A stretch of 64,000 nucleotides of DNA from a virus (IMGVR_UViG_3300049486_000079:28841-92840); one strand, 5' to 3'; positions 1,191 to 62,053 are shown, counted from the stretch's first letter. The notes: generated by a model from the sequence alone, not told the origin. Translations and numbers: made by a program.

Positions 1191-1733
1191 CTAACCCCTT
1201 TTCGCAGCAACCCAGCGCTTATACTCGCGGTTATAGCGAGCCTTGTAGTCAGGGTCGATATGAATCTTTAAGGTGCGCCCCTTAGTCTCCGGCGCAATGC
1301 CCTTACAGACGTAGTTATAGTTAGAACCACTGCATTTCCAGCGTTGCTTGCGGGCCATCGTATCGCCTCGGGGACCTGGCCCAAGGCGCTTCTTGTTCGA
1401 GAAGGGGTTATGCTCGCTAGACTTTTTCTTCTTTGAGGAGGTCTCTTCTGCCAGAAGAGACTCGATCTCGCGGATACAGGACCGTACGGTCTCATGGACG
1501 GAGTTGGGGCGTTCAATGAACGTACCCAAACGCGCCCATCCACGATCAAGGGTCAGAATCTCCAATCCAAATCGAATTGAGGGATCCTCAAAAGATAAAG
1601 ACTCTTCCCTGATCGCAGTCGTTCCCTCAAGATCCCACCCTACACGAATAGAATCAGAACTAAAATCGAGAATACGTCCCCGATTTCCTTGCTGGTCTCG
1701 AATACACGCGCCCTTGAGGTACGACTCAAGCAT
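1191..1733 (-). CDS. Hypothetical protein with basic C-terminal module, candidate internal head protein
   Basis: ORF track; shares W-x-C...C-x-G...YK-x2-YN-x2-YKRW module with 199..1188. Confidence 0.6.
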   Translation of the reverse strand: MLESYLKGACIRDQQGNRGRILDFSSDSIRVGWDLEGTTAIREESLSFEDPSIRFGLEILTLDRGWARLGTFIERPNSVHETVRSCIREIESLLAEETSSKKKKSSEHNPFSNKKRLGPGPRGDTMARKQRWKCSGSNYNYVCKGIAPETKGRTLKIHIDPDYKARYNREYKRWVAAKRG

Positions 1734-1739
1734 AAAACC

Positions 1740-2099
1740 TCACATCGCAACCGTCGAAGGAAGCTCTTCGACGTTCGCGTCCCATATGACCGCCTCTACT
1801 TGATAAATATCGACCAAGCGATCAGCGACAGAGGCGTCTTTTTTAAGAAGCCAGTCAATTCGACCTGTTCTGTTAGGATTGACGAGAAGAAAATTGACAA
1901 TCTCTTTGGTCTCTTTACTGCGAATAAGGCCAATAAAGGCGCCCTGCTGAACACGCTTCAAAATAGCCCGAGACTGATCGCTTTTCGATGTAGAAAACCG
2001 GGTACAGAGATCGTCCCAGGAACAAGAGACAGGAGGGTCCCTCGTAGGAACGATCCTGTCCGCGAGCAAACGACAATGCTGTATAACAAAAGAAGCCAT
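1740..2099 (-). CDS. Hypothetical protein
   Basis: Fits tight minus-strand gene packing. Confidence 0.6.
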   Translation of the reverse strand: MASFVIQHCRLLADRIVPTRDPPVSCSWDDLCTRFSTSKSDQSRAILKRVQQGAFIGLIRSKETKEIVNFLLVNPNRTGRIDWLLKKDASVADRLVDIYQVEAVIWDANVEELPSTVAM

Positions 2100-2145
2100 G
2101 GTAAAAAAGGCGAACGCCCCTCATCGGAGCGTTCGCTCCTCGAAC

Positions 2146-2463
2146 TTAGATGAGATCGATGAAGAGTTCTTCGTTGTCTGTCCGGTTGGCCTCGGCAGCA
2201 ACCGCGAGCGTCACTTTGCCCGCCGCCACGAGCCCGTTCCACTGATCCTTCGGCTCGAAGGGCACCCAAGGGACCGACTTGTAGCGCCAATCGGAAGGGT
2301 GCATGGGGAGCTGCTTCGTACCCGCCGCAGCGAGCGCCCCAATGTGACCAAAGGGGTAAGGAAGCGGGTACTTCCGGGCACCGCCCGTAGCCCCCGAACC
2401 TCCATCATGGACATCGAGATCATTCATCGTCGCACCAGACGTATTTGTCACTGTAACAAGCAC
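2146..2463 (-). CDS. Small putative virion/decoration protein
   Basis: AGGAGG RBS and own promoter; N-terminus (VTVTNTSG...GKVTLAV) resembles 35150..35752. Confidence 0.65.
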   Translation of the reverse strand: MLVTVTNTSGATMNDLDVHDGGSGATGGARKYPLPYPFGHIGALAAAGTKQLPMHPSDWRYKSVPWVPFEPKDQWNGLVAAGKVTLAVAAEANRTDNEELFIDLI

Positions 2464-2511
2464 GGTATTTCCTCCTAGGAAGGCTAGACCGAATAGGCTT
2501 CGGCAGCATCC

Positions 2512-2540
2512 AGCCTAATGGTAAAACGCCTTCGAGTCAA
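2512..2540 (-). promoter_or_regulatory. Sigma70-like promoter TTGACT-N17-TAGGCT
   Basis: Intergenic, 17-bp spacer, upstream of 2146..2463. Confidence 0.6.
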
Positions 2541-2588
2541 GCTGACGTAACAGTTGTAGTCCCTACGGCATATCTGCATTAAGGACAT

Positions 2589-2996
2589 TTAATCGCCGAC
2601 TAAACCGACAATCACATCCATGTCGACGCTGCCCATGTTGCTCGCATAAAGCGCAGTCAGTCCTGTGGTGCTGATCAGAAGATGGCCTTCCTTCGTTCCG
2701 GAAAGCGGAATAATCCGTAACTGCTCCCCGACCACTGTATTAAAGCGGATCCGAATTTCTACAGGAGTCATCGTAGGATCTTTGGAGCTGGTTCGGATAA
2801 GCAGAAATTTCGCATCAGCAACCGAGGCCATATCAAGAGGGATATCGACAGCACCTCCCGGCACCACGTTTTTTCGAATCCCTCCCTCGTTCGACCCGTC
2901 AGTCACAACCTCGTACCGAACATTCGCGAGATCTTTTTCTTCAGCAGAAGTTGAAGAAGCAGCATAGGAAATGTTGTAACGCGCACGCACTGCCAT
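2589..2996 (-). CDS. Hypothetical beta-rich virion protein
   Basis: AGGAGG RBS; follows the tail fibre gene. Confidence 0.65.
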   Translation of the reverse strand: MAVRARYNISYAASSTSAEEKDLANVRYEVVTDGSNEGGIRKNVVPGGAVDIPLDMASVADAKFLLIRTSSKDPTMTPVEIRIRFNTVVGEQLRIIPLSGTKEGHLLISTTGLTALYASNMGSVDMDVIVGLVGD

Positions 2997-6018: not shown

Positions 6019-6022
6019 AATA

Positions 6023-6427: not shown

Positions 6428-6433
6428 AAAACC

Positions 6434-9385
6434 TCACACTACGGTGGCGTCTGCGGTCAGAACTCCGACGCCCGTCAAAGAAGCAGAATCTACAAATATT
6501 ACACCTGAACCGATGACTATACCACCGACTCCGGTCAGAGAGGAAGAGCCGATTAAGGAAAGAGCAGACCCGACTCCTACGAAGCCTACTCCTGACATTG
6601 AGACGCTCCCTACAAGGATCAACGCAGAGCTTGCGGTAACAGTGCCTGTTCCTATAATCGCACCAAAAGCGGCAAAAACGCCGTCCGCAAAACCGGACGC
6701 CAGTATTGTCAAAGACGCCTGGAGGTACTGCGAGTATTTTATAGCAAGCTGGACATGCGCAGGCGTGGCCTCGGAAATACGCGTCAGAAGACGATCGAAA
6801 ACATCCTCAATGGGCTCTCCGACCTCATCTACAATCGTATCAGGCACGCACGTGGCCTGAGCCACATACGAGGCGCACCAATCGCAACCGAAGTCGACAG
6901 GGCCGCACTCATACGTAATCGACGCCTCTCCCGTCACAGGCGCTTGAAGCGCAAAGACATCAAATTCCGCATGCGTTGCCGACACTGTAACCGGAACCGT
7001 GTCCAAAAAGAAAGAAGTTCCGGCACTATCATCGAAGCGCCACACGCCCAACGAGAGGATCAGCTCGACCACGTCCCCAATAGGATAGCCGCTACCGGTG
7101 ACTCCTGAACGGACCACACGGACCCGATGCTTGTTTATTCCCACCGTCGTGACTGAAGCAACCGTGGTATGGATCGTCGTATAGAAGTTGTCTTCCCAGC
7201 AGAAATGATCGATCTCAAAGAACTTCGTCGGCTCGAACAAATTGACCTGTTCGACGTATTCTGCGAACGCCTCAGGCGCGATTTCGTCGAACAGAGGCAT
7301 CTCCGGTTGGAGATCGGTGTAATAGCGAACAGTCTGCCAGGTCAGGTTATTGTTGTTCGGCTCGCTAAGAGCCGCCGCCTGATCTTCGATCCTGAAAATA
7401 ACAGTCGAGCTGTTTACGATCTCCTCAATAACATAGGACTTGTTATTGCCAGAAACAGACGCGTTGGAGATGACAATACTACGGCCGACATCGGTAATGC
7501 TAAAATCAGGCGAAGGGGGATTGGGAGCAGGCCCCACGTCAATCGATCTGAACTGCGTACGTCCTGCTGTGCCCGCCTCTAGACGTCCTTTCAGGCCTGA
7601 CTTCCCTGGCGTCGTGGTCCCGATTGGATAAATGTTCGCATTAGGGAGCACTTCCAGGATGTCCTGGGGCACACGAAAAAGCTGGGTGACATCGACGTCG
7701 AACCCGCTCATTTTACCCAGAATCCGATAGCACTCCGGATGCCCCTTGATCCCGATCCACTTCTTCTGATCGGCGACCATGGAGCGCTGGCGCGTCTCGC
7801 TTTGCTGTGTATCCAGCTCCTCTGCAAAATCACGAGCAAGATGCGCAAGAAGCGAGGGCGGTCGAATTACGACCGCTGTTCCGTCGTCGTAACGTGTTTT
7901 CGCTCGTAGAGCACAATAAAGACCTGTTTCAGGGCCGACCAGTGTGGCATCCAGCTCCAGCTCGGTAGCCGAAAGCACTGCTACAATCTCGTATATGCCG
8001 TCATTGCCGAGACTGCTGCCACGAAGGGTGGCCAGCTTTCCGACATCTGTTTCCTTGAAAGAGGCCCTCAGGCTGCGAATGCGCGAGGGATTTATCCCCC
8101 CGACTGTTACCTCAGCGTCTGAGGTCTCAAATTCTAAATAGCCTCTTGGATAAGACTTCGTAGTTAGGTCGATCTCGGGACGGGGTAACAGAGCCCAGTC
8201 AAAAGGCCCCGCGTCCTCAGTCAGTAAGCGACCGGGGACCGTACGGTACACCGTCTCTCCCGCAGTTTGCGCTCCTGTGCCTAGAGCAGTCGCACGAAAA
8301 ATCAAAGACGCGTCTATATGGGAGTTTATTGCATCAGCCACATCGGAAGCCGATGAAACAATACTCCCAAAGACATCGGTTGCAAGAGAGACCGTAACAT
8401 CAGCACCATCGACTCCGACAGACAAAGTCGAATTCGGACCTGGCTTGACGTGTCGTATTCGAGGAACAACACCGCCAAACTCAGCCCCGAGTGAGCTGTA
8501 GGCGACACCTCCATCAGAAGTCTCGCCTCGAACAATTGCCCATGACGGTACCGCTATCGTGTTACCCCGGACCGCTGCAATGTCTACAACAACATTGTTC
8601 TCAGGGATCGAGGACTTTGAAATAGTGAGCTTCTTCCCGACGTCCTGCTGTGAGAGCATGATCGCTGTCGAAACGAAGAAACCATCACTGTTAATAGAGC
8701 CGTCGACACCTTCTTTTTCGGTCAGAAGACGGACAAGGCGCTCTGTCGTTCGGAGCTGCCTACGTGCTTGGAGTATAAACTGACCGTTTCCGTCTAGCAG
8801 CTCGCACCCAGGAAATAAATTGCCGACATCGCCGTTTTGAATTTCAAAACGTGTGAAATCCTGCTCCTCACTTAACGCTCGTAATTCCCACCGAAAAGGC
8901 CCTGCATCAGGTAAGAGTGTCGGGAACGTAGCCACCGCCTGAGGACTGATAATCGCCGTAATCGTAACCGTAGCATTGTTGGAGGACACGGTCGCCCCCG
9001 TGATCGACAACTCACGCCCGATATCCACAGCCGTAAACCTTGCGGTGTCGGCTGCAAACTCCTTGGTGACGACTACCTTGCCGTCCAAACCACTCTGAAC
9101 AACATCCCCTTTCAAGGGAATATTGCGTCCCAAACGGACTAGGACCTGCTCGTTGTACTGCGTCCGTATCGAATACGGATCTCGCAACGTATGAAACGAC
9201 CGGATCTTACGACGAATACGATCGTAAAGAGGCTGCTGTCCTTGTGCGAATTTAAGGTGCAGAAAACCGTTTTTCTGATCTTCAGTCCGATAAATGGCCG
9301 GTAAGCTATCGTAGAGAACAGCCTTGGCCCAGGCAAATTCCCCGAACGACTCTTCGCCGAATACGCCAGTTCCAAAGCCGGGCAT
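6434..9385 (-). CDS. Baseplate wedge protein (tail protein I / gp7-like) with inserted domains
   Basis: LPAIYR..D, LAHLA.DF, KGH and PAHV motifs; repeated D-[IV]-G beta-barrel inserts. Confidence 0.7.
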   Translation of the reverse strand: MPGFGTGVFGEESFGEFAWAKAVLYDSLPAIYRTEDQKNGFLHLKFAQGQQPLYDRIRRKIRSFHTLRDPYSIRTQYNEQVLVRLGRNIPLKGDVVQSGLDGKVVVTKEFAADTARFTAVDIGRELSITGATVSSNNATVTITAIISPQAVATFPTLLPDAGPFRWELRALSEEQDFTRFEIQNGDVGNLFPGCELLDGNGQFILQARRQLRTTERLVRLLTEKEGVDGSINSDGFFVSTAIMLSQQDVGKKLTISKSSIPENNVVVDIAAVRGNTIAVPSWAIVRGETSDGGVAYSSLGAEFGGVVPRIRHVKPGPNSTLSVGVDGADVTVSLATDVFGSIVSSASDVADAINSHIDASLIFRATALGTGAQTAGETVYRTVPGRLLTEDAGPFDWALLPRPEIDLTTKSYPRGYLEFETSDAEVTVGGINPSRIRSLRASFKETDVGKLATLRGSSLGNDGIYEIVAVLSATELELDATLVGPETGLYCALRAKTRYDDGTAVVIRPPSLLAHLARDFAEELDTQQSETRQRSMVADQKKWIGIKGHPECYRILGKMSGFDVDVTQLFRVPQDILEVLPNANIYPIGTTTPGKSGLKGRLEAGTAGRTQFRSIDVGPAPNPPSPDFSITDVGRSIVISNASVSGNNKSYVIEEIVNSSTVIFRIEDQAAALSEPNNNNLTWQTVRYYTDLQPEMPLFDEIAPEAFAEYVEQVNLFEPTKFFEIDHFCWEDNFYTTIHTTVASVTTVGINKHRVRVVRSGVTGSGYPIGDVVELILSLGVWRFDDSAGTSFFLDTVPVTVSATHAEFDVFALQAPVTGEASITYECGPVDFGCDWCASYVAQATCVPDTIVDEVGEPIEDVFDRLLTRISEATPAHVQLAIKYSQYLQASLTILASGFADGVFAAFGAIIGTGTVTASSALILVGSVSMSGVGFVGVGSALSLIGSSSLTGVGGIVIGSGVIFVDSASLTGVGVLTADATVV
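7111..7124. repeat. GGWCC-RYRY-GGWCC site
   Basis: GGACCACACGGACC. Confidence 0.75.
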
Positions 9386-9665: not shown

Positions 9666-10634
9666 TCAGAACGTCGGGACCGTATTTCCATTTGGCACCC
9701 AGACCTCACCAATGATGGTCGTAGTCGAGCTGCCCGAGCTGGGCTCGACCGTCCCCTGCACAATACCCGAGCCCGAAGGCGCATACGCGATGTCGACCAT
9801 AGTCCCTCGAATAGCAATCTGCGACGACGCTGTCGACACGCAGACGATAGGCATGTCGGGATATTTGCCCGAGATATTCGATCCAGTGTTTGTAACGTTC
9901 GTGAAAAAGTTATTCGATGTAAAAGGATTAAGAGGCGCAGCACCGTTTGCCGACGAATTGACAGTGTCGTCAATCCAGAATGACGTGTGCGCTCCGCTCT
10001 GGAGGTTCGCGAGGGTCAACGCACCATTCGTCGCATCGTAATTAACGAACTGATACGTCGGGTATAAGTCGCCAGACTCACTTCCCGTAAGCAAAAGGCT
10101 CGCCCAGGCAAAAAACATCTTCCCCGAACCTGTAGACGTGTAGAGCATAAGCCAGTCGCCGGCTGTGTTATACAGGATGCTGTATTTTGCCGCCGCGACC
10201 GCTGTCTTAATAAACTGCTGGTTCCCGATAGCGCGATTATTCGTAGGCGCAGTCGGATCGGTCGTCGTCGAACCACTCGTAAACGCAGCAGTCGCATACG
10301 TGATATTGATAAGGTGAGGGTTCCCTGAGCCTGTCGAACACGCAATGAGAATCCAAATATTCTTTCCGGACGACGGATAGTTCGTAGGGGACTTAAGCAC
10401 GATCCATGAGCGGGCGCTGCCGCCAGACTGCCACACAAGATTCGAGTCGGCCGACCAGCGATCCGTCCCATCCATACCAGCAGCAGTCGAAGACGAAGAT
10501 CCATCGACGGTCCACCCGGCGTTTTTCATCCCATCCTTGAACTGACGAAGGACCGCACGGGCCTGAGCTGTGAGCGACGCTGCGCTCGGAACATTGTTCC
10601 AAGAAGTTGTCCAGGTACGCACCAAAGTAGTCAT
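9666..10634 (-). CDS. Virion structural protein (fibre-tip/adhesin candidate)
   Basis: S/T/G-rich; AGWTV..S and WIVLK motifs; within fibre cluster. Confidence 0.65.
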   Translation of the reverse strand: MTTLVRTWTTSWNNVPSAASLTAQARAVLRQFKDGMKNAGWTVDGSSSSTAAGMDGTDRWSADSNLVWQSGGSARSWIVLKSPTNYPSSGKNIWILIACSTGSGNPHLINITYATAAFTSGSTTTDPTAPTNNRAIGNQQFIKTAVAAAKYSILYNTAGDWLMLYTSTGSGKMFFAWASLLLTGSESGDLYPTYQFVNYDATNGALTLANLQSGAHTSFWIDDTVNSSANGAAPLNPFTSNNFFTNVTNTGSNISGKYPDMPIVCVSTASSQIAIRGTMVDIAYAPSGSGIVQGTVEPSSGSSTTTIIGEVWVPNGNTVPTF

Positions 10635-42180: not shown

Positions 42181-42194
42181 GGACCGTACGGTCC
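42181..42194. repeat. GGWCC-RYRY-GGWCC site (perfect palindrome, intergenic)
   Basis: GGACCGTACGGTCC between gp13-like and gp14-like genes. Confidence 0.8.
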
Positions 42195-43550: not shown

Positions 43551-43595
43551 AAAAAAAACAGTAAAGACAGGCCCGGATACACCACCGGGCCTGTC
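43551..43595 (-). terminator. Rho-independent terminator after major capsid gene
   Basis: 11-bp stem GACAGGCCCGG/CCGGGCCTGTC followed by TTTACTGTTTTTTTT. Confidence 0.8.
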
Positions 43596-43626
43596 GATAC
43601 TTTATGTAAACCGGCCTAAAACCGAT

Positions 43627-48173: not shown

Positions 48174-48195
48174 CAGCGGCCTCGATCCAGCTCAG

Positions 48196-50088: not shown

Positions 50089-52205
50089 AAGCTATTCGGA
50101 TCCCAACCACTGCCCCAATCGGCGCCCCCGCTAATAAAAGGCGGCATCAGATCGGACATCGACCCCTGAGAAGGAGCCAAGGGTAAAATGGAGGGGGCGT
50201 TGGTAAAGTCTGCCATCCCTAAAGAAGGAGGCGTCGGCATCAAAGGAGACGTGTTCCCCTGGTTCGCAGCGTACCCAGGATCGACCCAGAACATGGGAGA
50301 CATACTGGAGCTGGAGACTATGGGAAGAGGCATATTGGTATGAGCCTGACTTAAAGTGAACAAGGCCCCTGCCAGCGCATCCGCGCAGTCCTTGCTGCCC
50401 TTGGGAGGGTGGTCGACCTTATTCTTAGTCGCGTGCTTTTCAAGCTGCCTCAGCTCGACCTTCAGAGGCTCGTAGTCATACAAGACCACACGGTCCTCAT
50501 ATAAAGCAAGCTTAAGATTCTCGTACGGCTCTAGTGAAGTATCCACAGATACAAGCTGCGCATTGTACCCTTTTTGACTGAGCTTTTGAATGGTGTCCGC
50601 CGACTGAAATGAGTCAGTCGACACCGAAGTAATGGTGTAGCCATGACTCGTCAGCTCGTAAATGAGCCGACGTATATCTCCCAGTACAATCTCTCCGCCT
50701 ATCGGTGGAATGATCTGAAGTACGACATCCACGTAATAGATAGGAGCGCGCTCCAGGTACTCACGTTGATCCTCTGTCCTTCGGATAACGTCTTTCCAGC
50801 CTGCGATATGAGACATGCAGAAACCAGCGCAGTCTCCTGATAAGGCGGGGTCTATATGAACGTGACGTACTGCGCGAGGATTCACGAGAGGACGCACAAC
50901 CCGCGTCGTTCCTCCACCAGAGACCCTCTCACTAAAGGCCCCTGTCATAACGCTCCAAAGGAAGCTGCCTCCTTTGGACATGTCGTAAACAGGAGTCGAA
51001 AAAGGATGGGCCCTACTGGGATCGATCGCATCCTGAATCTTCTCTCGTTTATGAATGAAGGGATGAAGCGCCGCTGTCGCCCGCCCCGCCAGATCGCGGA
51101 TGGCGCCTTCAAGGTCACGCTCAAAGTCGGCACGGAACTCTGGAGGGACCGCGATGATCTCGGTACCTTCAGGAAGCTGCTTACGGAACGAATCGACCTC
51201 CTCCGGCTCCAAGATCCGCGAGAGAGCTACTTCGTTGCCACAAAAGACATGAAAGCAGTTCTCCATGTCATAGGCCTCAGGCTTCACATCCCAAAGTGCA
51301 TAATCTAGGGCATAGACACTCGGATCACTCGCAGACTCTCGGATTTTTCTCTCGGTGAAATCGTCGTTCGACTGTTTCGACGAGACGAGAAAAAGGATCC
51401 CAGGAAGGCGGCCTCGTTTCTCGAAACGCGACTTCATACGACGCTTGATCGCGTTATAGATGACCTCGGCCTGGTCATACCTAGGGACGCCTGGTATATT
51501 ACGAACAGACTTCTGAGGCTTGGCTAAGAAGTTCGTCTCGTCGAGAAACGCCGCGATAGGAGCAAGACCTAACGCAGACGTGTCCGTCGTCGCTCGTGCC
51601 GCCACCCAGATATTGTTGGGAAACACAAGCTCCTTTTTCATGGCCTTGAACGGGAAATGCTGCTGAAAATACTCGCTGGCCTTTATCTTGGCTGCGATGT
51701 ACTCAAAGGCTACTTTAATCGCAAGCTGTTCCGTGACAGAGAGGCATATGGCCGATATTTTAGAATCTGCCGCGAGACCGAAGGCTTTCTGTGGGCTCTT
51801 CATGCAAGAAAGCTCGTAAAGAATACGACAGATTCCTATAGACGCAAAATAGCTTTTCCCGTAGCCAATGGACCCGCTGACAATAACCTCGTTGTAGCCC
51901 CCGCTGAAGACGTTCTTCAAATCCTCAAAGAGCACCCGATACGTATTCCCACATGTCTCCCCAAGAAAATGAGGATCATAGACGAATGTCTCCAGATCTA
52001 CAGGCGTGTTCTTATACTGCGCATTGTTGAGAACATCGATAATGGTGGGCTGACCTTGGAGATCGGTATTTAGCTCCGCCAGCATCAGCTTTAGAGTCTC
52101 AATCTCCTCAGCCGTCAGAGATCCTAACTCTTTTAGAATCGAAGACTCTTCGTCAGCACTGCCCCGAACGGTCTTGTACTGACCCCCTTCTTTAATAATA
52201 GGCAT
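50085..52205 (-). CDS. terL: Terminase large subunit
   Basis: Walker A GSIGYGKS, Walker B FLDE, nuclease HIDPA and DHP..GSKD.ADA motifs; upstream of portal. Confidence 0.93.
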   Translation of the reverse strand: MPIIKEGGQYKTVRGSADEESSILKELGSLTAEEIETLKLMLAELNTDLQGQPTIIDVLNNAQYKNTPVDLETFVYDPHFLGETCGNTYRVLFEDLKNVFSGGYNEVIVSGSIGYGKSYFASIGICRILYELSCMKSPQKAFGLAADSKISAICLSVTEQLAIKVAFEYIAAKIKASEYFQQHFPFKAMKKELVFPNNIWVAARATTDTSALGLAPIAAFLDETNFLAKPQKSVRNIPGVPRYDQAEVIYNAIKRRMKSRFEKRGRLPGILFLVSSKQSNDDFTERKIRESASDPSVYALDYALWDVKPEAYDMENCFHVFCGNEVALSRILEPEEVDSFRKQLPEGTEIIAVPPEFRADFERDLEGAIRDLAGRATAALHPFIHKREKIQDAIDPSRAHPFSTPVYDMSKGGSFLWSVMTGAFSERVSGGGTTRVVRPLVNPRAVRHVHIDPALSGDCAGFCMSHIAGWKDVIRRTEDQREYLERAPIYYVDVVLQIIPPIGGEIVLGDIRRLIYELTSHGYTITSVSTDSFQSADTIQKLSQKGYNAQLVSVDTSLEPYENLKLALYEDRVVLYDYEPLKVELRQLEKHATKNKVDHPPKGSKDCADALAGALFTLSQAHTNMPLPIVSSSSMSPMFWVDPGYAANQGNTSPLMPTPPSLGMADFTNAPSILPLAPSQGSMSDLMPPFISGGADWGSGWDPNSF

Positions 52206-53076: not shown

Positions 53077-54834
53077 TTACTTCGCGTCCGCCCAGGTCTT
53101 GCCGCTCCCTGGATCTACGCGAACTGGTACTGATTTCAAGAGGGTAGCCATAGCCTCTTGCATCCCGATGCGCAGCTCGTTCTTCACAGCCTCAACGAGA
53201 TCTGCGTCGTCGTCAACCTCACAAATAATCTCATCGTGCACATGATGGACCATCTTCGCTCGATCTCCAAAAGGCTTCAGACGGAAATAAACCTCGCGCA
53301 ACGCTCGTTTAAGACCGTCCGCACCTGTCCCCTGGACGGGTGTGTTCATGAACTCGCTATACGTATTCTCGGCTTCCAGGTAACGGACGCGTCCTGAGAG
53401 GGTGCGCGTAAACCCGCAGCGCTTCCCGTCGTTCACCGCTCGTTTGTGCCAGCGCTGAATCGATGAATACTCAGAAAAGTAACGTTCGATGAACGTCTCG
53501 GCTTGCCGCTTGGTCATCGAAACCCCGTAGTTGGACTGCGCGTAAAGCACCAACTTGTCGGCCCCCATACCATAAATCAACCCGAAATTCACTGCCTTGG
53601 CCGCTTGCCTCTGCGCCTTGGTGATATCCTTCTCCGCGACGTTGTTGATGACCGCTGCCGTATGGTAGTGAGCGTCCTTGTCCTCTTTGAAAATCCGAAG
53701 GAGGGTCTCGTCCTGAGCGATCTCCGCCGCAATCCGCATCTCGATCCCTGCGTAGTCGGCGACCACGTAAACCCTGCCGTTTTCCGGTCGAAAACACTCC
53801 CGAAACCGGGTGTCCCTGGGAATCTGCTGCAAATTAGGAGCAGAGCACGAAAAACGGCCTGCCCCTGTAAAAGGATAATACTGAGGATGGATTCTCCCTG
53901 TCTTAGGATGCACATACTCAAGAAAACTCGGCCCGAAAGCCGCAAGACATTTACTGTACTCGCGGTACTTGAAAATATCCGCAATCACAGGCATAGCACT
54001 GAGGAACTGCGCCAGGTCAATTTCAGCCGTGTTGGCTATTTTAGGGTTGAGCTTCTGAAGCGCTACCAGAAGCTGCGGGGTCGAATCGAGATTCCATGAG
54101 ACATCCATCCCCGGCAACGTCAACTGTGAAGAAGGATTTGGAAGCTGCGCGAGGAGCTTCTTTTTGTATTGGTCGGAAAGAGATTTATTCTCACGAGCCA
54201 AAGCCAGCCAGCGCGGCTGATCAATGTAAAAACCTTTCAACTCGACAGCGGACTCCGGGAGGACAGATCCAAACTCGATCAGCGCACAATGCTGAAGCCC
54301 AAAGGAGAAAATCTGCTTACGTAAAGAATCACGAAGTGCAGGAAGGAGGATAACGTCGTCCGCTGCATAATCATACTGCTCTTTAGTCAGGGCTCCCGCC
54401 CAATTCGACCCGCCTAGATCCTGGGTTCGAGGGAGCATGCCCAGCTCACGGGAATAGAGAGTGTAGAGGTCATGCGGGACCTTCCGACCATTGTGAATAA
54501 CGGCGCTCGCTCTATACGTATCAAAAATAGGCCACAGCTCTAGATTATAATGGTGAAGTAACCACTTCTGATCGAACTTGGCATTCTGAATAATTTTGAC
54601 CCCTTTCGAGGTCCGGAGCGCTCCTTCAAGCGGACCCAACCCACCAGTCTGGAAAAGGTCTACGACGAACGCTTCCTCGGAACACCCTATAGAGATGAGA
54701 CGAATATCGCCGTCCAGTGGATTCAGGGCCGTTGTCTCAAGGTCCAGCGCAAAGGCATCTGCTTTTTGAACAGCTTCGCAGACTTTCCCGAGGTCCGCAC
54801 GGTCCGTAACCAGCGTATACTCAAGATCTCTCAC
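53077..54834 (-). CDS. polA: DNA polymerase family A (3'-5' exonuclease + polymerase, no 5' nuclease)
   Basis: DLETT, NAKFD, YAADD, PNLQQIP, ADY..IE.R, RQAAKAVNFGLIYG and VHDE motifs. Confidence 0.97.
   Translation of the reverse strand: MRDLEYTLVTDRADLGKVCEAVQKADAFALDLETTALNPLDGDIRLISIGCSEEAFVVDLFQTGGLGPLEGALRTSKGVKIIQNAKFDQKWLLHHYNLELWPIFDTYRASAVIHNGRKVPHDLYTLYSRELGMLPRTQDLGGSNWAGALTKEQYDYAADDVILLPALRDSLRKQIFSFGLQHCALIEFGSVLPESAVELKGFYIDQPRWLALARENKSLSDQYKKKLLAQLPNPSSQLTLPGMDVSWNLDSTPQLLVALQKLNPKIANTAEIDLAQFLSAMPVIADIFKYREYSKCLAAFGPSFLEYVHPKTGRIHPQYYPFTGAGRFSCSAPNLQQIPRDTRFRECFRPENGRVYVVADYAGIEMRIAAEIAQDETLLRIFKEDKDAHYHTAAVINNVAEKDITKAQRQAAKAVNFGLIYGMGADKLVLYAQSNYGVSMTKRQAETFIERYFSEYSSIQRWHKRAVNDGKRCGFTRTLSGRVRYLEAENTYSEFMNTPVQGTGADGLKRALREVYFRLKPFGDRAKMVHHVHDEIICEVDDDADLVEAVKNELRIGMQEAMATLLKSVPVRVDPGSGKTWADAK
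54792..54805. repeat. GGWCC-RYRY-GGWCC site
   Basis: GGTCCGCACGGTCC near polA start. Confidence 0.75.
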
Positions 54835-55435: not shown

Positions 55436-56275
55436 TTATTCTGTGCGAGCCAACGCTTCGAGCGTATCCACCCCGAACACAATCTCTCCCTTGGACGGAT
55501 CGTACGCAATCAGCCTGACATTAAGAGAGGATTCTAACCCGTTCAGGTATTCCTCCAGCACTCTCTCCTCTTTCGTGAAAGAATGTGTCGCAAGAAAGTT
55601 CGTACAAATCAGGTCGAGGTTGTGGCTCTTCTTATCCGACTTGGACAACCGTGCGGCCGTCTCCAAAGCCTTCTCCACGTTCACTGCTTGCTCGGGGTAC
55701 AGCTTGAAAGCTTCGTTCTTTAAGGCCTCGGGTTTCGGAATCTTCGTGTCGACGTCGTTAAGATCGATCGTCTCACGATCCTCCCCATACTCTTCCTGAA
55801 CACGATCCAGGTACTGATTCACAAGCTGACAGAGCTTGGCGTGACTGATCTGCTCCGCCTGCTCAATCCACTCTTCCGCATTATGCTGGTTAATGACACG
55901 GATAAGCTCGCGCACCTTAGAAAAGCCCAACGCCACAAGGCGTGCTTTGATCGATTCGTTGAGCCGGTTCCCCAGATCGACTTCCAGTCGATACCAGATC
56001 CTACGAAGCCGCTGTGCCCGCTTAGGCTCGATATTCAGATCCTGACGGACATATTCATCGAAAGTCTCAAATCCCCACGATCGGTAAATAGGTCCTTTCT
56101 CGGGATCTCCATCGACAGGAGCGTCGTAAATGGTATAAAGAAGACGGGCCAACTCCATATAGCCCTCTTCCACTTTTGTAGCGAAATCACGCGCCTTGCG
56201 CCGAACACGGCGTCCCCAGTCGGCAGATCCGACATCGGTCACAGTCTCAGTCTGGACTTCCTCATACGCATGCAT
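55436..56275 (-). CDS. Helical DNA-binding protein (DUF3102/ParB-HTH-like)
   Basis: GF.TF.EY...L.I....A..L, G.SK..EL motifs. Confidence 0.6.
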   Translation of the reverse strand: MHAYEEVQTETVTDVGSADWGRRVRRKARDFATKVEEGYMELARLLYTIYDAPVDGDPEKGPIYRSWGFETFDEYVRQDLNIEPKRAQRLRRIWYRLEVDLGNRLNESIKARLVALGFSKVRELIRVINQHNAEEWIEQAEQISHAKLCQLVNQYLDRVQEEYGEDRETIDLNDVDTKIPKPEALKNEAFKLYPEQAVNVEKALETAARLSKSDKKSHNLDLICTNFLATHSFTKEERVLEEYLNGLESSLNVRLIAYDPSKGEIVFGVDTLEALARTE

Positions 56276-56279: not shown

Positions 56280-56855
56280 TCACTCCACTAAAGAACGAGC
56301 CATCCGAACGACTTCTGAATCCAAACAAGCTTCGATAGAAGCAAGAGCATCAAAGGCATGTTCGACGTCTTGTTTGACAAAGGCCTCTGGAAAAACCTGG
56401 AACTTGGAGGACACCGCCTCCTGGATCTCGAACTTCGAGGCGTTCTTCCGTCCGCACAGCTTCTCTTTTAGCTCTTGCGGCGAACACTGTACCACAGGCA
56501 AGTCATTGAGTGCCGATAAAGTCCCAAGGATCCCCCAACAAATTCCGAGCTGCTGCGCCACAGAAGCCGAAGGTGGGAAAGACATGGCCTCTGCCGAGAT
56601 AACCCTTATGTTCAAGTCGGACTTCTCAAATATGCGCGTATTAAGCTCCAAGGCTATCTCACGAGCCCGTCGAAGCCGGTCGTCTGACGCCCTAACCTCA
56701 CGTTTTTTAGCCGACTGCTCCGTATGCAAAGCACCCATCAAAGGACGACCATGCCTATCTCTCACAAGCTCACAGGTTTTCCTGGAAAGGGTCACAACCG
56801 CATAGCCTATATTGGCGAGCCCGGGATCGATGCCGAGCATATGTATCTGCGCCAT
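56280..56855 (-). CDS. ruvC: RuvC-like Holliday junction resolvase
   Basis: LGIDPG..N.GY, E, P..LK....G..NASK and H..DA motifs. Confidence 0.9.
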   Translation of the reverse strand: MAQIHMLGIDPGLANIGYAVVTLSRKTCELVRDRHGRPLMGALHTEQSAKKREVRASDDRLRRAREIALELNTRIFEKSDLNIRVISAEAMSFPPSASVAQQLGICWGILGTLSALNDLPVVQCSPQELKEKLCGRKNASKFEIQEAVSSKFQVFPEAFVKQDVEHAFDALASIEACLDSEVVRMARSLVE

Positions 56856-57229
56856 TATTCCGCTCGCACCTTCATCTCGACTAGACGAGAGACAAACGCG
56901 ATTGAGCCTAAGATCCGATCAGCGTCGTCTGTCTTAACCAGGCAAGAATCTTCGCTTTTTTCAAAAACCGCGCCCATCGCGTCCTCAGTGTCCTTGATCA
57001 GACGCTTGATATCTTCTTGCCTCCGCTTACCCCACTCGGACTTGTACAAAAAACACCAAGAACACAATGCCAAAAGCGAGTCTTCGGCCGAAGCAGATCG
57101 AAGTGCAGGATCCAGAAGACCCCAACGAGCCACTGTTCGATGACAGCAACTACAGGCGACTCCCCAGAGAGCCTTCGGCAAAGGCTGAAGATAACGAGGA
57201 TCCAACAAAAGTAGATTGTCAAAAGCCAC
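56855..57229 (-). CDS. Hypothetical Zn-finger protein
   Basis: CSCC ... CSWC; coupled to neighbours. Confidence 0.6.
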   Translation of the reverse strand: MAFDNLLLLDPRYLQPLPKALWGVACSCCHRTVARWGLLDPALRSASAEDSLLALCSWCFLYKSEWGKRRQEDIKRLIKDTEDAMGAVFEKSEDSCLVKTDDADRILGSIAFVSRLVEMKVRAE

Positions 57230-58079
57230 GATACCGCTCCGTCATCGAAAAACAAGGGCCTACGACCACGCAATCACGTGCGCGTGAACAAGACGAATCT
57301 GAACAAATACGTTCAGGCAAAATACCTTCCCGTATCCCTCGTTGAATCTCCAACGCGGTCTTTTTGACAGCGTCGGTCGTTTCCCGGTCTTCTTCGATAA
57401 AATGCTCGATAAGAGCCTTTGCGCCAAAAGCGCCTTTGTTCCAGTAGATAAAAACAGCCCACTTCAAGCCTGTGAGCATGAAGTACACGTGCGCCTGAAT
57501 CACATGATTGATATTAGGCGTATTACGGATCTCAAAGGACGACCGCTCGCTGACGGATTTTATTTCCAATAAGCCCAAGCCAGGCAAGGAAGGCAGTCGG
57601 AGAAACCCGTCGGGATGGCCCGAAACCCGATAAGCGTCGTCCTTGAAATGAAGTTCGTTGTACACAAACTTGTCGTGCCCACAACGACGGCAGTGCAGGG
57701 GACGTGTCATCAGCCCCATCTCCAAAGGACGATGCCTTGGGCGACCCCCGTGGCGTTTGTTGCACCTCAGACACAACCACTGCCCGAGAAGAACTCCGGT
57801 TTTAGGCAGGATTTCGTTCTGCATGACCCAATGCAGTCCGGTACCGTGAGCAAAAGTGAGCAGAAGATCTGTGTTAAACCGATTCCGCCGCTCTCTCTTC
57901 TCAAGTGAGCAGATTACTTCCTCGCGAGGACAAAGCGCTCCAAACGAAGACGCCCTGAGATACGAATCCTCTGTAAAATAAGGTTTCGCAGAATCCTCGA
58001 CGAAATAGGACTCAATCAGACTGCGGAGGGACGTTTTGGCTCGGTTCGCCTGAATAATCGCCGAAAAAGCCATAACCAT
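57219..58079 (-). CDS. Cas4-like PD-(D/E)xK exonuclease (start likely near 58079)
   Basis: AS....CPR, GT.LH, GHPDG...LEIKS, Q.H.Y, C-terminal C-x4-C-x5-C; CxxC/CxxC insert. Confidence 0.85.
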   Translation of the reverse strand: MVMAFSAIIQANRAKTSLRSLIESYFVEDSAKPYFTEDSYLRASSFGALCPREEVICSLEKRERRNRFNTDLLLTFAHGTGLHWVMQNEILPKTGVLLGQWLCLRCNKRHGGRPRHRPLEMGLMTRPLHCRRCGHDKFVYNELHFKDDAYRVSGHPDGFLRLPSLPGLGLLEIKSVSERSSFEIRNTPNINHVIQAHVYFMLTGLKWAVFIYWNKGAFGAKALIEHFIEEDRETTDAVKKTALEIQRGIREGILPERICSDSSCSRARDCVVVGPCFSMTERYRGF

Positions 58080-58369
58080 CCTCTCTGTACGGGCTGTAGT
58101 TCTGAAGGGAAAAGACCGTCTAATGCTCGAACACAAAGACCTATAAGCGCACGGGTTTCTGCCGCATTGAGGTCCGACTGGCAACCGCTACAGGAGAAAC
58201 GGCGCGTCTCAGGCGACCAGCACATTACCTCTTCACAAAAACAGCATACGATTAAGGCTTTGAGGTTTTTTCCGTCCTGCTGGGAGAATGTAACCGAAAC
58301 ACGACTCTGGGGCCTGATAAATAGCTTATCTCGCTGCAATTCAATCTCGTGTTCAAGTTCCTTCTCCAT
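58016..58369 (-). CDS. Zn-ribbon hypothetical protein
   Basis: CCFC ... CSGC. Confidence 0.6.
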   Translation of the reverse strand: MEKELEHEIELQRDKLFIRPQSRVSVTFSQQDGKNLKALIVCCFCEEVMCWSPETRRFSCSGCQSDLNAAETRALIGLCVRALDGLFPSELQPVQRGWLWLFRRLFRRTEPKRPSAV

Positions 58370-58739
58370 GATGAATCAGTCTCTTAAATACCTGTTTGGG
58401 CAATAAGACCCAGTCTTCTGCTTGTCCTCGAAGTCCTTCAAAAGTGATAATCACCGCAGGATCCTTCAGGCGTTCCGTAGCTGCGAGGAAGACCTTGGTC
58501 AGCCATTCTCGTTTGAGTGCTAAGGACTCTTTTTCTGTCCGTTTATGTTCGACCCAGAAAGAACCGAAGGTGAGATCTGCCCCCTCGGTCGAAATGCTGT
58601 CCTTAGATCCTCTGCGTGCCCCTGACTGAAGGAGCCTCTTTCCGCCAAACTCAGCAGCCAGACGCTCCTCGTCCTTTCGGGACTTACGCACCCGCTGAGC
58701 CGTGCGCTTCGAGTCTGACAGCCACCTAGGGCCGCTCAC
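58353..58739 (-). CDS. Hjc-like PD-(D/E)xK resolvase
   Basis: E..LA...GG....SGA, AD, VEHK.T.K.S and W..K motifs. Confidence 0.8.
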   Translation of the reverse strand: MSGPRWLSDSKRTAQRVRKSRKDEERLAAEFGGKRLLQSGARRGSKDSISTEGADLTFGSFWVEHKRTEKESLALKREWLTKVFLAATERLKDPAVIITFEGLRGQAEDWVLLPKQVFKRLIHHGEGT

Positions 58740-58742
58740 AAC

Positions 58743-59915
58743 TCAGCTCTTCTTCTTCGATCGAGTACCCTCGACCGGAGCAGTCTCGGCCGACTCGACC
58801 GAATCAGGCGAAGACGCTTTGAAATCCAAATTCAAGAGGTGCTGTTTCACGATATAGGAGAACTCCGGATCGATCATCAAGCGACGCTCGACATGAGAGC
58901 GTGCCGAGAATTCCTCTCCGAGGCAAATCCACTTGTTTTTACTCTTGAAAAGGACGCCCTGCTGCTCCGCGACCTCGACTACGGCAGGCTCGTCAATAAC
59001 AGAGCCTTTCTTTTTCGTCTCCGTGTCCATGAGAACGAGCCTGTAGCTCCCCTCCATCCCACGAGTGCCACCGTATTTGTTCTTCTCAATCTTGAATTCG
59101 ATCTCGCAGTATTTCGGAAGCTTCGTCGCCTCGTCCAGCTCGGGGTTGTTCGACTTGACACGAACCTCAGTCGAAGTGGAAAAGCCGATTGCAAGCCCTC
59201 CGGGCTGAACCTCGGGATTCCCGAACATCGTCATCTTATTGCGAATCTGATTTGTGAAAAACACAGTCGGTCTGCGTCCTCGGTCGTTCCCGAGCGTATT
59301 CAACGCGGCTGTTGTCTTTCGAATCAGCTTCCCAATGAGACGAGGCTGCTGGCCCATAAAATCTCTCTCGGCCGACTCCTCGGTCTCCTTAATCGGAACC
59401 AAAAAGGCGAGCGAGTCGAGATATATGATGTCACACTCCCCGCTCAGAAGAATGGCCTCGAAAATGTCGACCGCCTGCTCTCCGTATTCAGGCTCCGAGT
59501 AGAGGATCTTGGTCGTATCGACCCCCAACGAAGAGGCCCAGGAGGCGTCCCAGGTTCCCTCGACATTCACCATGGCGACGATAGGCTCCCTGTACTCGGG
59601 GCACGTGCACAACAGCTCGCCCGTAATCGGATGAATGCCCTTCCAGCAATTCGCGCACATCTTCTGAGCATTCGCGATCGTCTTCAAAAGCGTCGTCGTC
59701 TTCGATGATGCTTTGAAACCGAACATGAGATTGACCACTCCGACTGGGAAGCCGCCGCCAAGTGCCCGATCGAGAGGGAAAATCGTAGTCGGAATCCTTG
59801 CGATCCTTGCGGCCCTATGGTCGGAGGCCCGCATAATAATATCATCTCGTTTGAGATGCTTAGCCAGCTTTTTCAGGGACTCCGAAGCGAGAAAAGACGA
59901 TAACCGATCGTTCAT
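58743..59915 (-). CDS. recA: RecA/UvsX-like recombinase
   Basis: LDRALGGG.P.G, G..SSKTT, DSLA.L.P..E, NQIR...MFGNPE..PGG and KNK motifs. Confidence 0.93.
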   Translation of the reverse strand: MNDRLSSFLASESLKKLAKHLKRDDIIMRASDHRAARIARIPTTIFPLDRALGGGFPVGVVNLMFGFKASSKTTTLLKTIANAQKMCANCWKGIHPITGELLCTCPEYREPIVAMVNVEGTWDASWASSLGVDTTKILYSEPEYGEQAVDIFEAILLSGECDIIYLDSLAFLVPIKETEESAERDFMGQQPRLIGKLIRKTTAALNTLGNDRGRRPTVFFTNQIRNKMTMFGNPEVQPGGLAIGFSTSTEVRVKSNNPELDEATKLPKYCEIEFKIEKNKYGGTRGMEGSYRLVLMDTETKKKGSVIDEPAVVEVAEQQGVLFKSKNKWICLGEEFSARSHVERRLMIDPEFSYIVKQHLLNLDFKASSPDSVESAETAPVEGTRSKKKS

Positions 59916-59918
59916 GCC

Positions 59919-60260
59919 CTACTCCAGATCTCCTGCGCTGCTGAGCACCGCTTTTCGGATCGACTCCTTCTCGGAGTTAATACGCTCTTCTGCCCATTTC
60001 GATGCGAACTTATAGGCAGTATCCATCTCTTCAAAATAGCAAGGAATACTGACAGCGACCCCTAGCCGGGCGCTCTCGTAATTACCAAGGCTCAGAGTCA
60101 TTCCATACTCGACAGTAACCCGAGCAGGCTCTGTCACGTATTTATGGACTCGAATGAGTTCGTCTTTTACGAGGGGCGCCCCTTGGGCCTCTCCCTTTCT
60201 TAGGAACTGGCTTGTCACTATTACCTGACTGGACTGTACCTGCTCTTTTTGCTTCGGCAT
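59919..60260 (-). CDS. Conserved phage protein (T.SLGNYESARL family); start likely ATG 60260
   Basis: LGNYES motif; AAGG upstream. Confidence 0.7.
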   Translation of the reverse strand: MPKQKEQVQSSQVIVTSQFLRKGEAQGAPLVKDELIRVHKYVTEPARVTVEYGMTLSLGNYESARLGVAVSIPCYFEEMDTAYKFASKWAEERINSEKESIRKAVLSSAGDLE

Positions 60261-60435
60261 GCTGCTTGACCTTATCCAAAGCCGCTTTACGTTCACGTCG
60301 AAGACGCTTACGGTTTTCGTTATTCTGTTCTAGAATCCGCTGACGATAGTCGGGGTCGTTCTCATAACGAGATCTTCGAAGCTCGTTATACCTGTCTTTG
60401 TTTTCCTGGTACCAATCTTGAAATGTACGAGCCAT
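60142..60435 (-). CDS. Basic helical protein; start likely ATG 60435
   Basis: AGGAG RBS; WY.ENK....RR.RY..DP.YR. Confidence 0.6.
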   Translation of the reverse strand: MARTFQDWYQENKDRYNELRRSRYENDPDYRQRILEQNNENRKRLRRERKAALDKVKQHAEAKRAGTVQSGNSDKPVPKKGRGPRGAPRKRRTHSSP

Positions 60436-60445
60436 AGGACTGCTC

Positions 60446-61813
60446 CTAAAAATCCATAGATCGAACCCAGGACTTTTTGTAATACAAGTTCCAGCGACTA
60501 AAAGCAGCACGTTTACAAAGCCCGATGTTGTCGTCCCGGATATCGACAACAATAGGCTCCTTCTTACCTGGATAGGGACGCTGGATTCTTCCTACGGCCT
60601 GCTCGACATCGCTGATCGGTGTCGCCAAAACGAGGGTATCAAGAGGGGGGATATCCAAAGCCTCTTGCACGAGCTGTGCAGTCGCAAAAATGACCTGCGC
60701 TTCTTCCGCTTTCTCATAATCGCCGTCCTTCATGCCTCCGATATAATAACCAATCGTCGGAAGAATGCCCCACTCCGGCTCCCAAGTCTTTCGGAAGAGA
60801 TCTTCGAGTACGCGAAGGTGCTGATCCAGTCGCTCGCTCAGCACCAAAATCTTACGCCCCGACCGCGCAGCTTGTTGAATTTGATCGACAATAATGAGAT
60901 TTCTCTTCTTGTTTTGAACAAGAAACTTCAGAAGTATCGTCTTTTTGAGAAGACCTTGATTGATCTTATCTCCCCTCGGGAGAACGAATCCTGTGTGCAC
61001 TCGCTTGATAACGGGCTTTAGCCGCTGCGTACGTCCAGTGTAGAGAATGGGACCGATATGATGCCAAAAGACATCCTCGGCACCGTCCTTACGTCGAGGT
61101 GTCGCAGACAGCCCGAGCCTCCACCTCGCGGGAAAACGAGGCGGAATCTGACTCCACGTAGGGGCTCCAATCCGATGGACCTCATCAGAAATAATCAAGC
61201 CGAAATGATTACGAAAACAGGCACCATAATCACGAGCAATAAGGCTGTCGTTCATCGCCACCACAATGTGACGACCCTTGAACTCACACCGATCCTGCTG
61301 AACAACCCCTACAAGGGCTTTAGGCAAAAAACGAGCGATGCGCTCCAGCCACTGGCGCATCAAAAACCCTTTATGAACCGTAATCAAAGTCGGAACATTG
61401 AGTCGAGCGACAAGCGCCAACGTAGCGACCGTCTTACCCCAACCACACCCTGCGCAGAGAATCCCCCCAAGATCTCCGCTCTCGAACGCATCGAGAATCT
61501 GAGCAATCGCCTTCTCTTGATCAGGCTCCAACCGCCCAGAAAAGCTCAGATCTGAGTGCCACCCTGACTTGTCTCCTTCAGTGTAGGAGGGGATAATCTC
61601 ATGATCAGGGCGCCTGTATTTGAAAAAAAATCCCCGTGGGACTCCGAACTTGTCCGGACGCTCCTCGTAGAGATGCAAAGGCGAAGGATCGTCCCCGGGA
61701 TAATCGCCCACCTTCTGAGGCTGAAGAGTCAGGGACTGTTTGAGCTTAAGAATCTGAGAAGACGACAACGCGTCTTTCGGAAACCAGGCCCAACTGTCCA
61801 CCGCAATCTTCAC
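60446..61813 (-). CDS. SF2 DEAD/DEAH helicase (UvsW-like); start likely GTG 61813
   Basis: G.GKT, DEVH, GLSATP.R.DG and Q.VGRI.R motifs; GTGA overlap. Confidence 0.93.
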   Translation of the reverse strand: MKIAVDSWAWFPKDALSSSQILKLKQSLTLQPQKVGDYPGDDPSPLHLYEERPDKFGVPRGFFFKYRRPDHEIIPSYTEGDKSGWHSDLSFSGRLEPDQEKAIAQILDAFESGDLGGILCAGCGWGKTVATLALVARLNVPTLITVHKGFLMRQWLERIARFLPKALVGVVQQDRCEFKGRHIVVAMNDSLIARDYGACFRNHFGLIISDEVHRIGAPTWSQIPPRFPARWRLGLSATPRRKDGAEDVFWHHIGPILYTGRTQRLKPVIKRVHTGFVLPRGDKINQGLLKKTILLKFLVQNKKRNLIIVDQIQQAARSGRKILVLSERLDQHLRVLEDLFRKTWEPEWGILPTIGYYIGGMKDGDYEKAEEAQVIFATAQLVQEALDIPPLDTLVLATPISDVEQAVGRIQRPYPGKKEPIVVDIRDDNIGLCKRAAFSRWNLYYKKSWVRSMDF

Positions 61814-62025
61814 CGCAAATCCTCTACACGTTTGGGGTTGTTCTCTATGGAAAGACGATAATCCACCTCCCCGCGAACCGACTCTAACCAGTCCGCTGGA
61901 AGGCGCGTCGGGTGTTCCCTTTGAAACCAATGAAAATCGATCTTTCGTCGCTTCCCCGGAGGGGCCTCGACGATAGCCGATAATTTTGATTTACCCAGGA
62001 ACAAGGTCACGCTAACCAAGTTCAT
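61810..62025 (-). CDS. Hypothetical protein
   Basis: Coupled to the helicase start. Confidence 0.6.
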   Translation of the reverse strand: MNLVSVTLFLGKSKLSAIVEAPPGKRRKIDFHWFQREHPTRLPADWLESVRGEVDYRLSIENNPKRVEDLR

Positions 62026-62039
62026 GAGACACCAAGCCC

Positions 62040-62053
62040 GGACCGTGCGGTCC
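62040..62053. repeat. GGWCC-RYRY-GGWCC site (intergenic)
   Basis: GGACCGTGCGGTCC downstream of SSB. Confidence 0.8.

Follow-up and report, generated by a model that had tools for sequence, protein, structure and literature searches.

A lattice of evenly spaced 14-bp palindromes in a T4-like phage genome and a candidate ParB-type reader

Introduction

The 64,000-nucleotide stretch analysed here (the window) comprises bases 28841-92840 of a 92,840-bp IMG/VR virus contig (IMGVR_UViG_3300049486_000079, hereafter G000) that is classed as linear and, by CheckV, is about 54% complete. Throughout it recurs a 14-bp palindromic motif, GGWCC-RYRY-GGWCC, and the question raised by this locus is what maintains so many copies of one short word and what, if anything, reads them. 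The explanation that we favour, with a confidence somewhat above even, is that the motif forms a lattice of duplex-DNA sites for a phage-encoded, dimeric, sequence-specific protein, whose likeliest candidate is the 279-amino-acid (aa) product of a gene termed X here.

Abundance and form of the motif

The whole contig contains 13 exact and 13 one-mismatch copies of GGWCCRYRYGGWCC (GGWCC-RYRY-GGWCC), where a third-order Markov model predicts 0 and 0.43, respectively. A sequence-only reading of the window had claimed nine exact and nine single-mismatch copies; all eighteen are present where it placed them, and the exact motif does not occur once in 100 dinucleotide shuffles. Its estimate of about one site per 3.5 kb agrees with a mean gap of 3,544 bp in the contig. 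The same reading had also listed three two-mismatch copies, but this class is at chance level (10 seen in the contig against 9.1 expected), and these three copies are therefore not evidence. The sites of the window, with gene calls made as simple open reading frame (ORF) picks, are the following (nt, nucleotides).

7111..7124, exact copy (GGACCACACGGACC), within a 983-aa gene
15945..15958, exact copy, within a 131-aa gene
26147..26160, exact copy, within a 151-aa gene
29191..29204, exact copy, within a 104-aa gene
38732..38745, exact copy, within the tail sheath gene
42181..42194, exact copy, perfectly palindromic; between genes, 12 nt ahead of a 191-aa gene, and abutting an AT-rich palindrome
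48158..48171, exact copy, at the 5' end of a 192-aa gene that lies downstream of the portal gene
54792..54805, exact copy, close to the 5' end of the DNA polymerase gene
62040..62053, exact copy, between genes, upstream of the helicase gene and 3 nt away from an AT-rich palindrome
1479..1492, one-mismatch site
8236..8249, one-mismatch site
10550..10563, one-mismatch site, with G in place of W
16448..16461, one-mismatch site, with C in place of W
20111..20124, one-mismatch site
21332..21345, one-mismatch site
24837..24850, one-mismatch site
37538..37551, one-mismatch site, in the sheath gene
50483..50496, one-mismatch site, in a 706-aa putative large terminase gene

The excess persists when codons are shuffled synonymously within genes. 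Such shuffles of the contig retain a mean of 2.5 exact copies (maximum 4) and 2.9 one-mismatch copies (maximum 7); as about two of the exact copies are intergenic and hence not shuffled, about 0.5 exact and 2.9 one-mismatch genic copies are left. The spacing of the two halves is equally specific: among pairs of GGWCC within 40 bp of each other, 13 have a spacer of 4 bp, every one of them RYRY, and any other spacer occurs at most twice. It had been argued that the constraint acts on DNA, and the observations offered in support are accurate: the peptides encoded at the sites (VRVV, DRAD, TTRT, GRRGP) are correctly translated, the 22 genic sites fall in all three frames (4/6/12), and two copies in the window, at 42181 and 62040, are intergenic.

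The description of the motif as a 14-bp palindrome holds as regards its excess but not as regards strict symmetry, since of 43 exact sites across relatives just 21 are truly palindromic. The W pairs of these 43 sites vary semi-independently (A..T in 21, A..A in 12, T..T in 10 and T..A in 0). About half of the exact sites have a W mismatch and so cannot form a perfect hairpin, and the constraint is thus on duplex DNA, neither on protein nor on RNA. The symmetrised half-site logo reads G G A(0.75)/T(0.19) C C R Y and holds no information beyond the 14 bp; a half-site GGACCRY without flanking information appears to fit the dimeric protein that the sequence-only reading had proposed. The likeness of each half to an AvaII/SinI site, which had also been pointed out, explains nothing, because the single word GGWCC is not enriched (156 seen against about 200 by a zero-order estimate).

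Distribution of the sites along the genome

The sites of the contig are spaced more evenly than expected at random (coefficient of variation, CV, 0.59 against 0.94, P = 0.003). The exact sites alone give a CV of 0.38 (P = 0.0002), and the largest gap between sites is 8.3 kb. The marking of the whole chromosome that had been suggested is in keeping with this even spread. About 85% of the sites lie inside genes, most of them deep in long genes, and their distances to gene starts are the same as those of random points (P about 0.4). On this last result the reading of the sites as promoters or operators was rejected, and control of individual promoters by the lattice looks unlikely. The even spacing, the symmetry of the sites (which gives them no orientation), their turnover at kept density in related phages, their intragenic placement and the position of gene X in the recombination module together argue for a genome-wide role at the level of DNA over single-promoter control.

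Conservation and loss in related phages

The same motif is the most over-represented dyad in related phages, where the positions of the sites turn over. It is carried by the IMG/VR relatives G002, G006, G007, G011 (identical to G013), G012, G015 and G016, whose core proteins are 45-60% identical and whose GC content ranges from 53 to 62%, at densities of 1.1-2.8 sites per 10 kb. In a wider set of 40 loci, GWCC-RYRY-GGWC, the 12-bp core, occurs 31 times with different outer bases, where about 4 copies are expected. In a tree of DNA polymerases, genomes with the motif are spread over the whole clade; G014, which branches among them, is without the motif, as is G020, and because of this topology the motif was probably lost in these two. 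Subtraction of gene content between motif-bearing phages and G014/G020 yielded no candidate gene.

One orthologous site is identical in G013, G012, G016 and G002 within flanks that are 70-85% identical (72-77% in the comparisons with G002), and it is destroyed in G014; most other sites show no positional conservation. The preferred centre also differs by lineage, being G-rich in the 53%-GC genome G000 and ATAT or ATAC in the 61%-GC genomes G012 and G013, that is, opposite to base composition. The best explanation, held at the same strength as the reading of which it forms a part, is that selection keeps the number and even spacing of the sites (about 1 per 3.5 kb), not their exact positions.

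Palindrome lattices in other phages

Comparable lattices built from other words occur in more distant phages. The outgroup G008 (IMGVR_UViG_3300033070_001349, 148 kb) carries 27 exact copies and 1 near copy of the 14-bp palindrome GAGYCAYRTGRCTC, about 5.3 kb apart (CV 0.48) and usually flanked by G...C to give 16 bp, and contains the GGWCC motif only in traces. The two motifs have the centre C-R-Y-R-Y-G and the outer G...C in common and differ in their arms; the G008 lattice is the cleaner of the two. Other lattices are formed by TCCAATNNATTGGA in G029 (25 copies), TGCAA-N4-TTGCA in G024 (24 copies) and CGCAA-N4-TTGCG in G021 (14 copies), and G023 has the palindrome GTCCAAC-NN-GTTGGAC. Among cultured phages, evenly spaced 14-bp palindromes of TGCAA type number 35 in Stenotrophomonas phage DLP5 (NC_042082), 48 in Rhodobacter phage RcTiptonus (MW677527) and at least 17 in Rhizobium phage RHph_TM16 (MN988459); the GGWCC motif itself is at most weak in cultured phages with a ParB-like gene.

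Spacing is significantly even in 9 of the 11 genomes tested, and most sites lie within ORFs. Intergenic DNA is nonetheless over-represented among the sites of several genomes, for example G008, where it holds 8 of 28 sites against 8% of non-coding sequence. The genome papers on DLP3/DLP5 and on the Rhodobacter phages do not mention these repeats, and no description of a genome-tiling lattice of such palindromes was found in the literature searched. DLP5 is reported to persist as a phagemid.

Gene X as candidate reader

The candidate reader and the module to which it belongs are located as follows.

55436..56275, minus strand, gene X, 279 aa, candidate reader; last gene of the recombination module
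56280..59915, minus strand, recombination module: RuvC-like protein, 124-aa ORF, Cas4/RecE-like exonuclease, 128-aa ORF, UvsX/RecA

X belongs to phrog_17202, a family of unassigned function, and closes the recombination module (UvsX, exonuclease, RuvC, X) in G000 and in the siphovirus DLP5 alike. It is modelled as a helix-turn-helix domain of ParB/Noc/KorB type (residues about 11-160) with a small C-terminal domain, and its alignment contains a helix-turn-helix-like stretch and a conserved LGWSKxREL motif. An AlphaFold model built on 18 homologues has a mean predicted local distance difference test score (pLDDT) of 84. The best Foldseek matches of this model are all ParB or Noc, with weak E-values. 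With VIA-align it superimposes on Spo0J-parS (4umk_D) with Z 9.3 and a root-mean-square deviation of 3.5 over 114 residues, on ParB-parS (6t1f) with Z 8.1, on Noc-NBS (7ol9, 6y93) with Z 7.5-7.7 and on KorB-operator (1r71) with Z 5.7, all of these alignments running over the DNA-binding domains. Residues 11-160 also align to 6s6h (Z 7.5), and the fold match to KorB is weak (Z 4.9-5.7). In an unbiased search of 48,161 chains only 9 reach Z 5, and ParB-family chains make up four of the ten best. That the N-terminal domain of X has the ParB/Noc/KorB DNA-binding fold is, on this modelling, probable rather than proven. The structural neighbours of X in the Atlas also include DUF3102 clusters (template-modelling score 0.39-0.44), and the X homologue of G029 scores 23.3 bits against DUF3102 (PF11300; E 8e-5), just under the cut-off of 24.4.

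Profile searches, one of which used 9 of the 18 X sequences, find X homologues in DLP5, TM16, RcTiptonus, G003, G008, G021, G024, G026 and G029 and none in the phage KellEzio, G001 or G004, these last three being without a lattice. The DLP5 homologue is gp066 (record positions 47752-48564), and those of TM16 and RcTiptonus are the ORFs at 29045-30346 and 68031-69326, respectively. Fused, longer relatives of X were not found, which is weak evidence. The X gene of G021 has an intein inside the conserved GW-SK motif. A residue pair in the putative recognition helix tracks the arms of the palindromes: KA[QE]RL goes with GGWCC, KANAL with GAGYC and KARHL with TCCAA, and a helix tyrosine (A.YL; KA.YL in most, TAMYL in TM16) goes with TGCAA, CGCAA or CGAAA arms. 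In G020, where the motif is lost, the helix reads KAEHL.

Several observations weigh against X as the reader. X of G000 has no match in Pfam, and its fold scores are middling for an all-helical protein, the Rubisco chaperone Raf1 scoring equally high (Z 7.9). X is present without a detectable lattice in G014 (25 kb), G020 (98 kb) and G026 (complete, 149 kb), and loci L226-L229 have X with a GGWCC-type helix but no detectable lattice. RcTiptonus shares the motif of DLP5 although its X has diverged far (E 4e-9; helix SKGRGL). The covariation of helix and arms comes from few, phylogenetically structured lineages, and the association of X with lattices is likewise informal and phylogenetically structured, with G001, G004, G005 and KellEzio as the only controls. 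Because the contig is incomplete, another reader could also be encoded in the missing part. With these points taken into account, we infer X to be the reader. It would bind as a dimer, with each subunit reading one half-site GGACCRY, and the lattice would serve a genome-wide DNA transaction.

Alternative explanations

The most direct competitor is that the sites are read by another phage protein, in particular a protein with a ParB N-terminal domain (ParB_N; phrog_26387) whose gene would lie in the missing 46% of G000. It is encoded by a syntenic core gene in G002, G007, G008 and G011-G020, aligns to Noc and Spo0J over residues 7-147 and has these two as its best PDB sequence matches. Besides this domain, which is of nucleotide-binding type, the protein has a C-terminal one. 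It occurs together with a lattice in G002, G008 and locus L005, the motif is confined to loci with close ParB_N orthologues, many contigs retrieved via phrog_26387 carry 5-N4-5 palindromes, and the incompleteness of G000 leaves room for the gene elsewhere. The search for ParB and methylase genes that the sequence-only reading had called for nevertheless found no ParB N-terminal (cytidine triphosphate (CTP)-binding) domain, ParA or DNA methyltransferase in the available G000 sequence: PF02195 has no match (in relatives this domain is on a separate protein), and a clade-specific profile of 19 phrog_26387 members finds nothing in any of the six frames (best E 0.42, against 1e-71 or lower in controls). 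ParA-type ATPases (PF01656, PF13614) are absent from G000, and in G024 and G029, two complete genomes with lattices, none scores over the cut-off. In nearly all relatives the gene order is X, ParB_N protein, a 253-aa ORF, an ORF of about 1,700 aa and DNA polymerase; at the syntenic place in G000 only two small ORFs separate X from the polymerase, no ParB_N remnant is left in any frame, and yet this genome has the densest lattice. Conversely, G014 and G020 keep the ParB_N gene without the motif, and KellEzio has the gene with neither X nor a lattice. No palindrome site is consistently found beside the ParB_N gene. The ParB_N protein was set aside as reader because these discordant genomes (G000, G014, G020 and KellEzio) undermine it, and a reader other than X, of either kind, strikes us as unlikely. 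A transcriptional purpose for the same reader, as a KorB-like or stoperator-like repressor or a roadblock that times a 90-kb co-directional gene array, receives a similarly low weighting. Every gene is on the same strand, between two and four sites occupy intergenic DNA just ahead of a gene, several genomes have the intergenic surplus described above, and KorB represses from dispersed operators by sliding (PMC11790492); the sites of G000 are, however, no nearer to gene starts than random points and mostly deep in long genes, their even spacing is unexpected for operators, and symmetric sites cannot be oriented in the manner of stoperators (PMC4351075).

The remaining readings fare less well. 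The sites could be targets of a DNA modification or nicking enzyme (thymine oxidation and glycosylation of the ParB-activated 5mYOX type, or methylation): a thymine is present in each W pair and in most centres, the T-dioxygenases of phages are found along with ParBs, glycosyltransferases and terminases (PMC13229309), and in cultured phages a ParB-like gene lies between glycosyltransferase and terminase genes. The known enzymes, however, favour contexts of 2-3 nt, not 14-bp palindromes, symmetric nicking would break the genome, and the available G000 sequence has no C5 or N6/N4 methyltransferase. The link to thymine dioxygenases was rejected on finding no Tet_JBP domain in ten genomes (G000, G002, G008, G012, the complete genomes G024 and G029, and four cultured phages), a search with PF12851 that divergent Tet_JBP members may escape; modification as a whole seems improbable. 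Equally improbable is a host factor or host pressure, such as a nucleoid protein, a titrated defence protein or a repair bias, with host switches behind the losses in G014 and G020. It would suit the patchy occurrence among close relatives and the fact that no phage gene is visibly lost in the 25 kb common to G014 and G002, but phages of 53-62% GC share the motif, the preferred centre runs opposite to genome GC, and the variant of each deeper lineage tracks a helix in a phage protein. A structural element in DNA or RNA (hairpin, terminator or cruciform), a topoisomerase site or a tiny mobile element is barely credible. A perfect copy could fold into a 4-nt loop on a 5-bp stem, its centre of alternating pyrimidines and purines is flexible, and the 4 bp of this centre equal the stagger of type II topoisomerases. 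The hairpin or terminator reading is contradicted by the sequence itself: about half of the exact sites have A·A or T·T mismatches in the stem, a T-run is missing and the flanks are not conserved. An insertion of 14 bp would disrupt reading frames. The gyrase or topoisomerase site was rejected in view of the published gyrase motif, which is about 130 bp long and degenerate (PMC6379681), and among the proteins scanned, which did not include every ORF, no topoisomerase family was seen beyond the Toprim domain of the primase.

Several features of the ParB_N neighbourhood were noted in passing. In relatives the stretch from the ParB_N gene to the DNA polymerase gene holds a 1,686-aa ORF without a Pfam match (L066:11659-16719 in G002; syntenic in G011-G017), and the entire block, about 8 kb, is absent from G000. 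Inteins interrupt the ParB_N gene in G016 and G020 and the DNA polymerase gene in several relatives.

Genome context

Nearly every ORF of the window and of the contig is on the minus strand. Its structural genes encode a T4-type major capsid protein (gp23), prohead protease, portal, sheath and baseplate wedge, and its DNA-metabolism genes a family A DNA polymerase, UvsX/RecA, a RuvC-like resolvase, a Cas4/RecE-like exonuclease, a superfamily 2 helicase and a primase. Dihydrofolate reductase (DHFR), thymidylate synthase and an intein-bearing ribonucleotide reductase are encoded outside the window. The ribonucleotide reductase large subunit (1,191 aa; G000 20016-23591, which is L037:5016-8591) contains a LAGLIDADG intein, and a thymidylate-synthase-family protein with a 57-residue N-terminal extension (G000 5938-6939) adjoins DHFR. 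A plus-strand 558-aa ORF in the window (43381-45057) overlaps the gp23-type capsid gene (43627-45150, minus strand) and is probably spurious. No integrase was found in the available sequence, and megablast and tblastn searches against cultured phages returned no close cultured relative, the best portal identity being 33%.

An AT-rich palindrome of the form TTATTCNGAATAA stands beside both intergenic GGWCC sites of the window, at 42194-42206 and 62057-62069. Related AT-rich words, TTATT-N4-ATAAA, occur 8 times against 0.18 expected and are the second most over-represented dyad of the genome; this dyad may be a promoter or terminator element.

A broader proposal

Where both genes exist, X and the ParB_N protein look like a ParB split in two, and an attractive model is that such a pair uses the sites for loading and spreads from there, much as KorB does (PMC11790492). 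The lattice may mark or coat phage DNA for recombination-dependent replication, packaging or silencing. G000 suggests that the DNA-binding half alone can maintain a lattice, unless its partner is in the unsequenced half. From these elements we put forward, tentatively and with less confidence than the reading of X in the window, that diverse tailed phages, both T4-like myoviruses and siphoviruses of about 95 kb, the cultured DLP5, RcTiptonus and RHph_TM16 among them, tile their genomes with even 5-N4-5 palindromes as loading or docking sites of a ParB-type protein that is split into a DNA-binding half, the DUF3102-like X, and a nucleotide-binding half. The specificity of X would co-evolve with the sites through one or two helix residues, its half alone would suffice in G000, and the lattice would mark self DNA for a process tied to the recombination and replication module.

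ParB-family proteins are known as centromere binders and, in the case of KorB, as plasmid-wide regulators. If the proposal is true, an even lattice of sites over a lytic phage genome, written through codon choice into essential genes, would be a new use of this family, and it would account for otherwise unexplained phage repeats such as the 17-mers of Cluster O mycobacteriophages. The proposed code, with arginine, tyrosine, histidine or alanine at one helix position for each arm type, predicts residue swaps that would retarget the protein. Three cultured phages with equivalent lattices and X homologues make the finding directly testable, and lattice motifs could serve as lineage markers that link metagenomic phage fragments.

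Comparison with known systems

Among phage repeats, the stoperators of Cluster A mycobacteriophages resemble the lattice in being a short site present 20-30 times per genome, also within genes, and bound by one phage protein. As summarised in PMC4351075, they differ in being asymmetric, oriented with transcription and bound by a temperate-phage immunity repressor, whereas the lattice sites are symmetric and G000 shows neither a repressor nor an integrase. The 17-bp dyad of Cluster O mycobacteriophages (Corndog) is similar in that it has more than 30 copies throughout the phage, most of them not at promoters, and that this phage forms no lysogens and has no integrase (PMC4351075). Its arms are invariant and arranged 7-3-7, it has no proposed reader, and about 70% of its sites are intergenic or at 5' ends of genes, in contrast to the roughly 85% inside genes here.

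The parS-like architecture claimed in the sequence-only reading stands in part. The frame G-nnn-C-RYRY-G-nnn-C is that of the canonical parS core GTTTCACGTGAAAC, and the candidate reader would have a fold of ParB/Noc/KorB type; what is missing from the available G000 sequence is the ParB N-terminal domain and ParA. ParB-parS and Noc-NBS are alike in using palindromes of 14-16 bp that are read by a dimer, with Noc sites dispersed along the chromosome, and they supply the best structural matches of X (4umk, 6t1f, 7ol9, 6y93). The parS half-site is GTTTCAC as against GGACCRY, with arms TTT as against GWC, and parS occurs in few copies clustered near the origin, whereas here 26 are spread evenly. 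ParB and Noc also carry a CTPase domain in the same chain, which X does not, and no ParA was found in G000.

The IncP plasmid RK2 has 12 OB sites, the operators of KorB, in 60 kb. The lattice described here is about twice as dense, mostly intragenic and even, and lies in a T4-like phage without lysogeny genes in the available sequence. KorB has its own CTP-binding N-terminal domain and the partners KorA and the ParA-type IncC, whereas X is without such a domain; KorB acts at a distance from OB sites by loading and sliding (PMC11790492). The likeness between KorB-OB and the system proposed here would be that of a helix-turn-helix protein of the ParB family and one short palindrome dispersed over a replicon of tens of kilobases.

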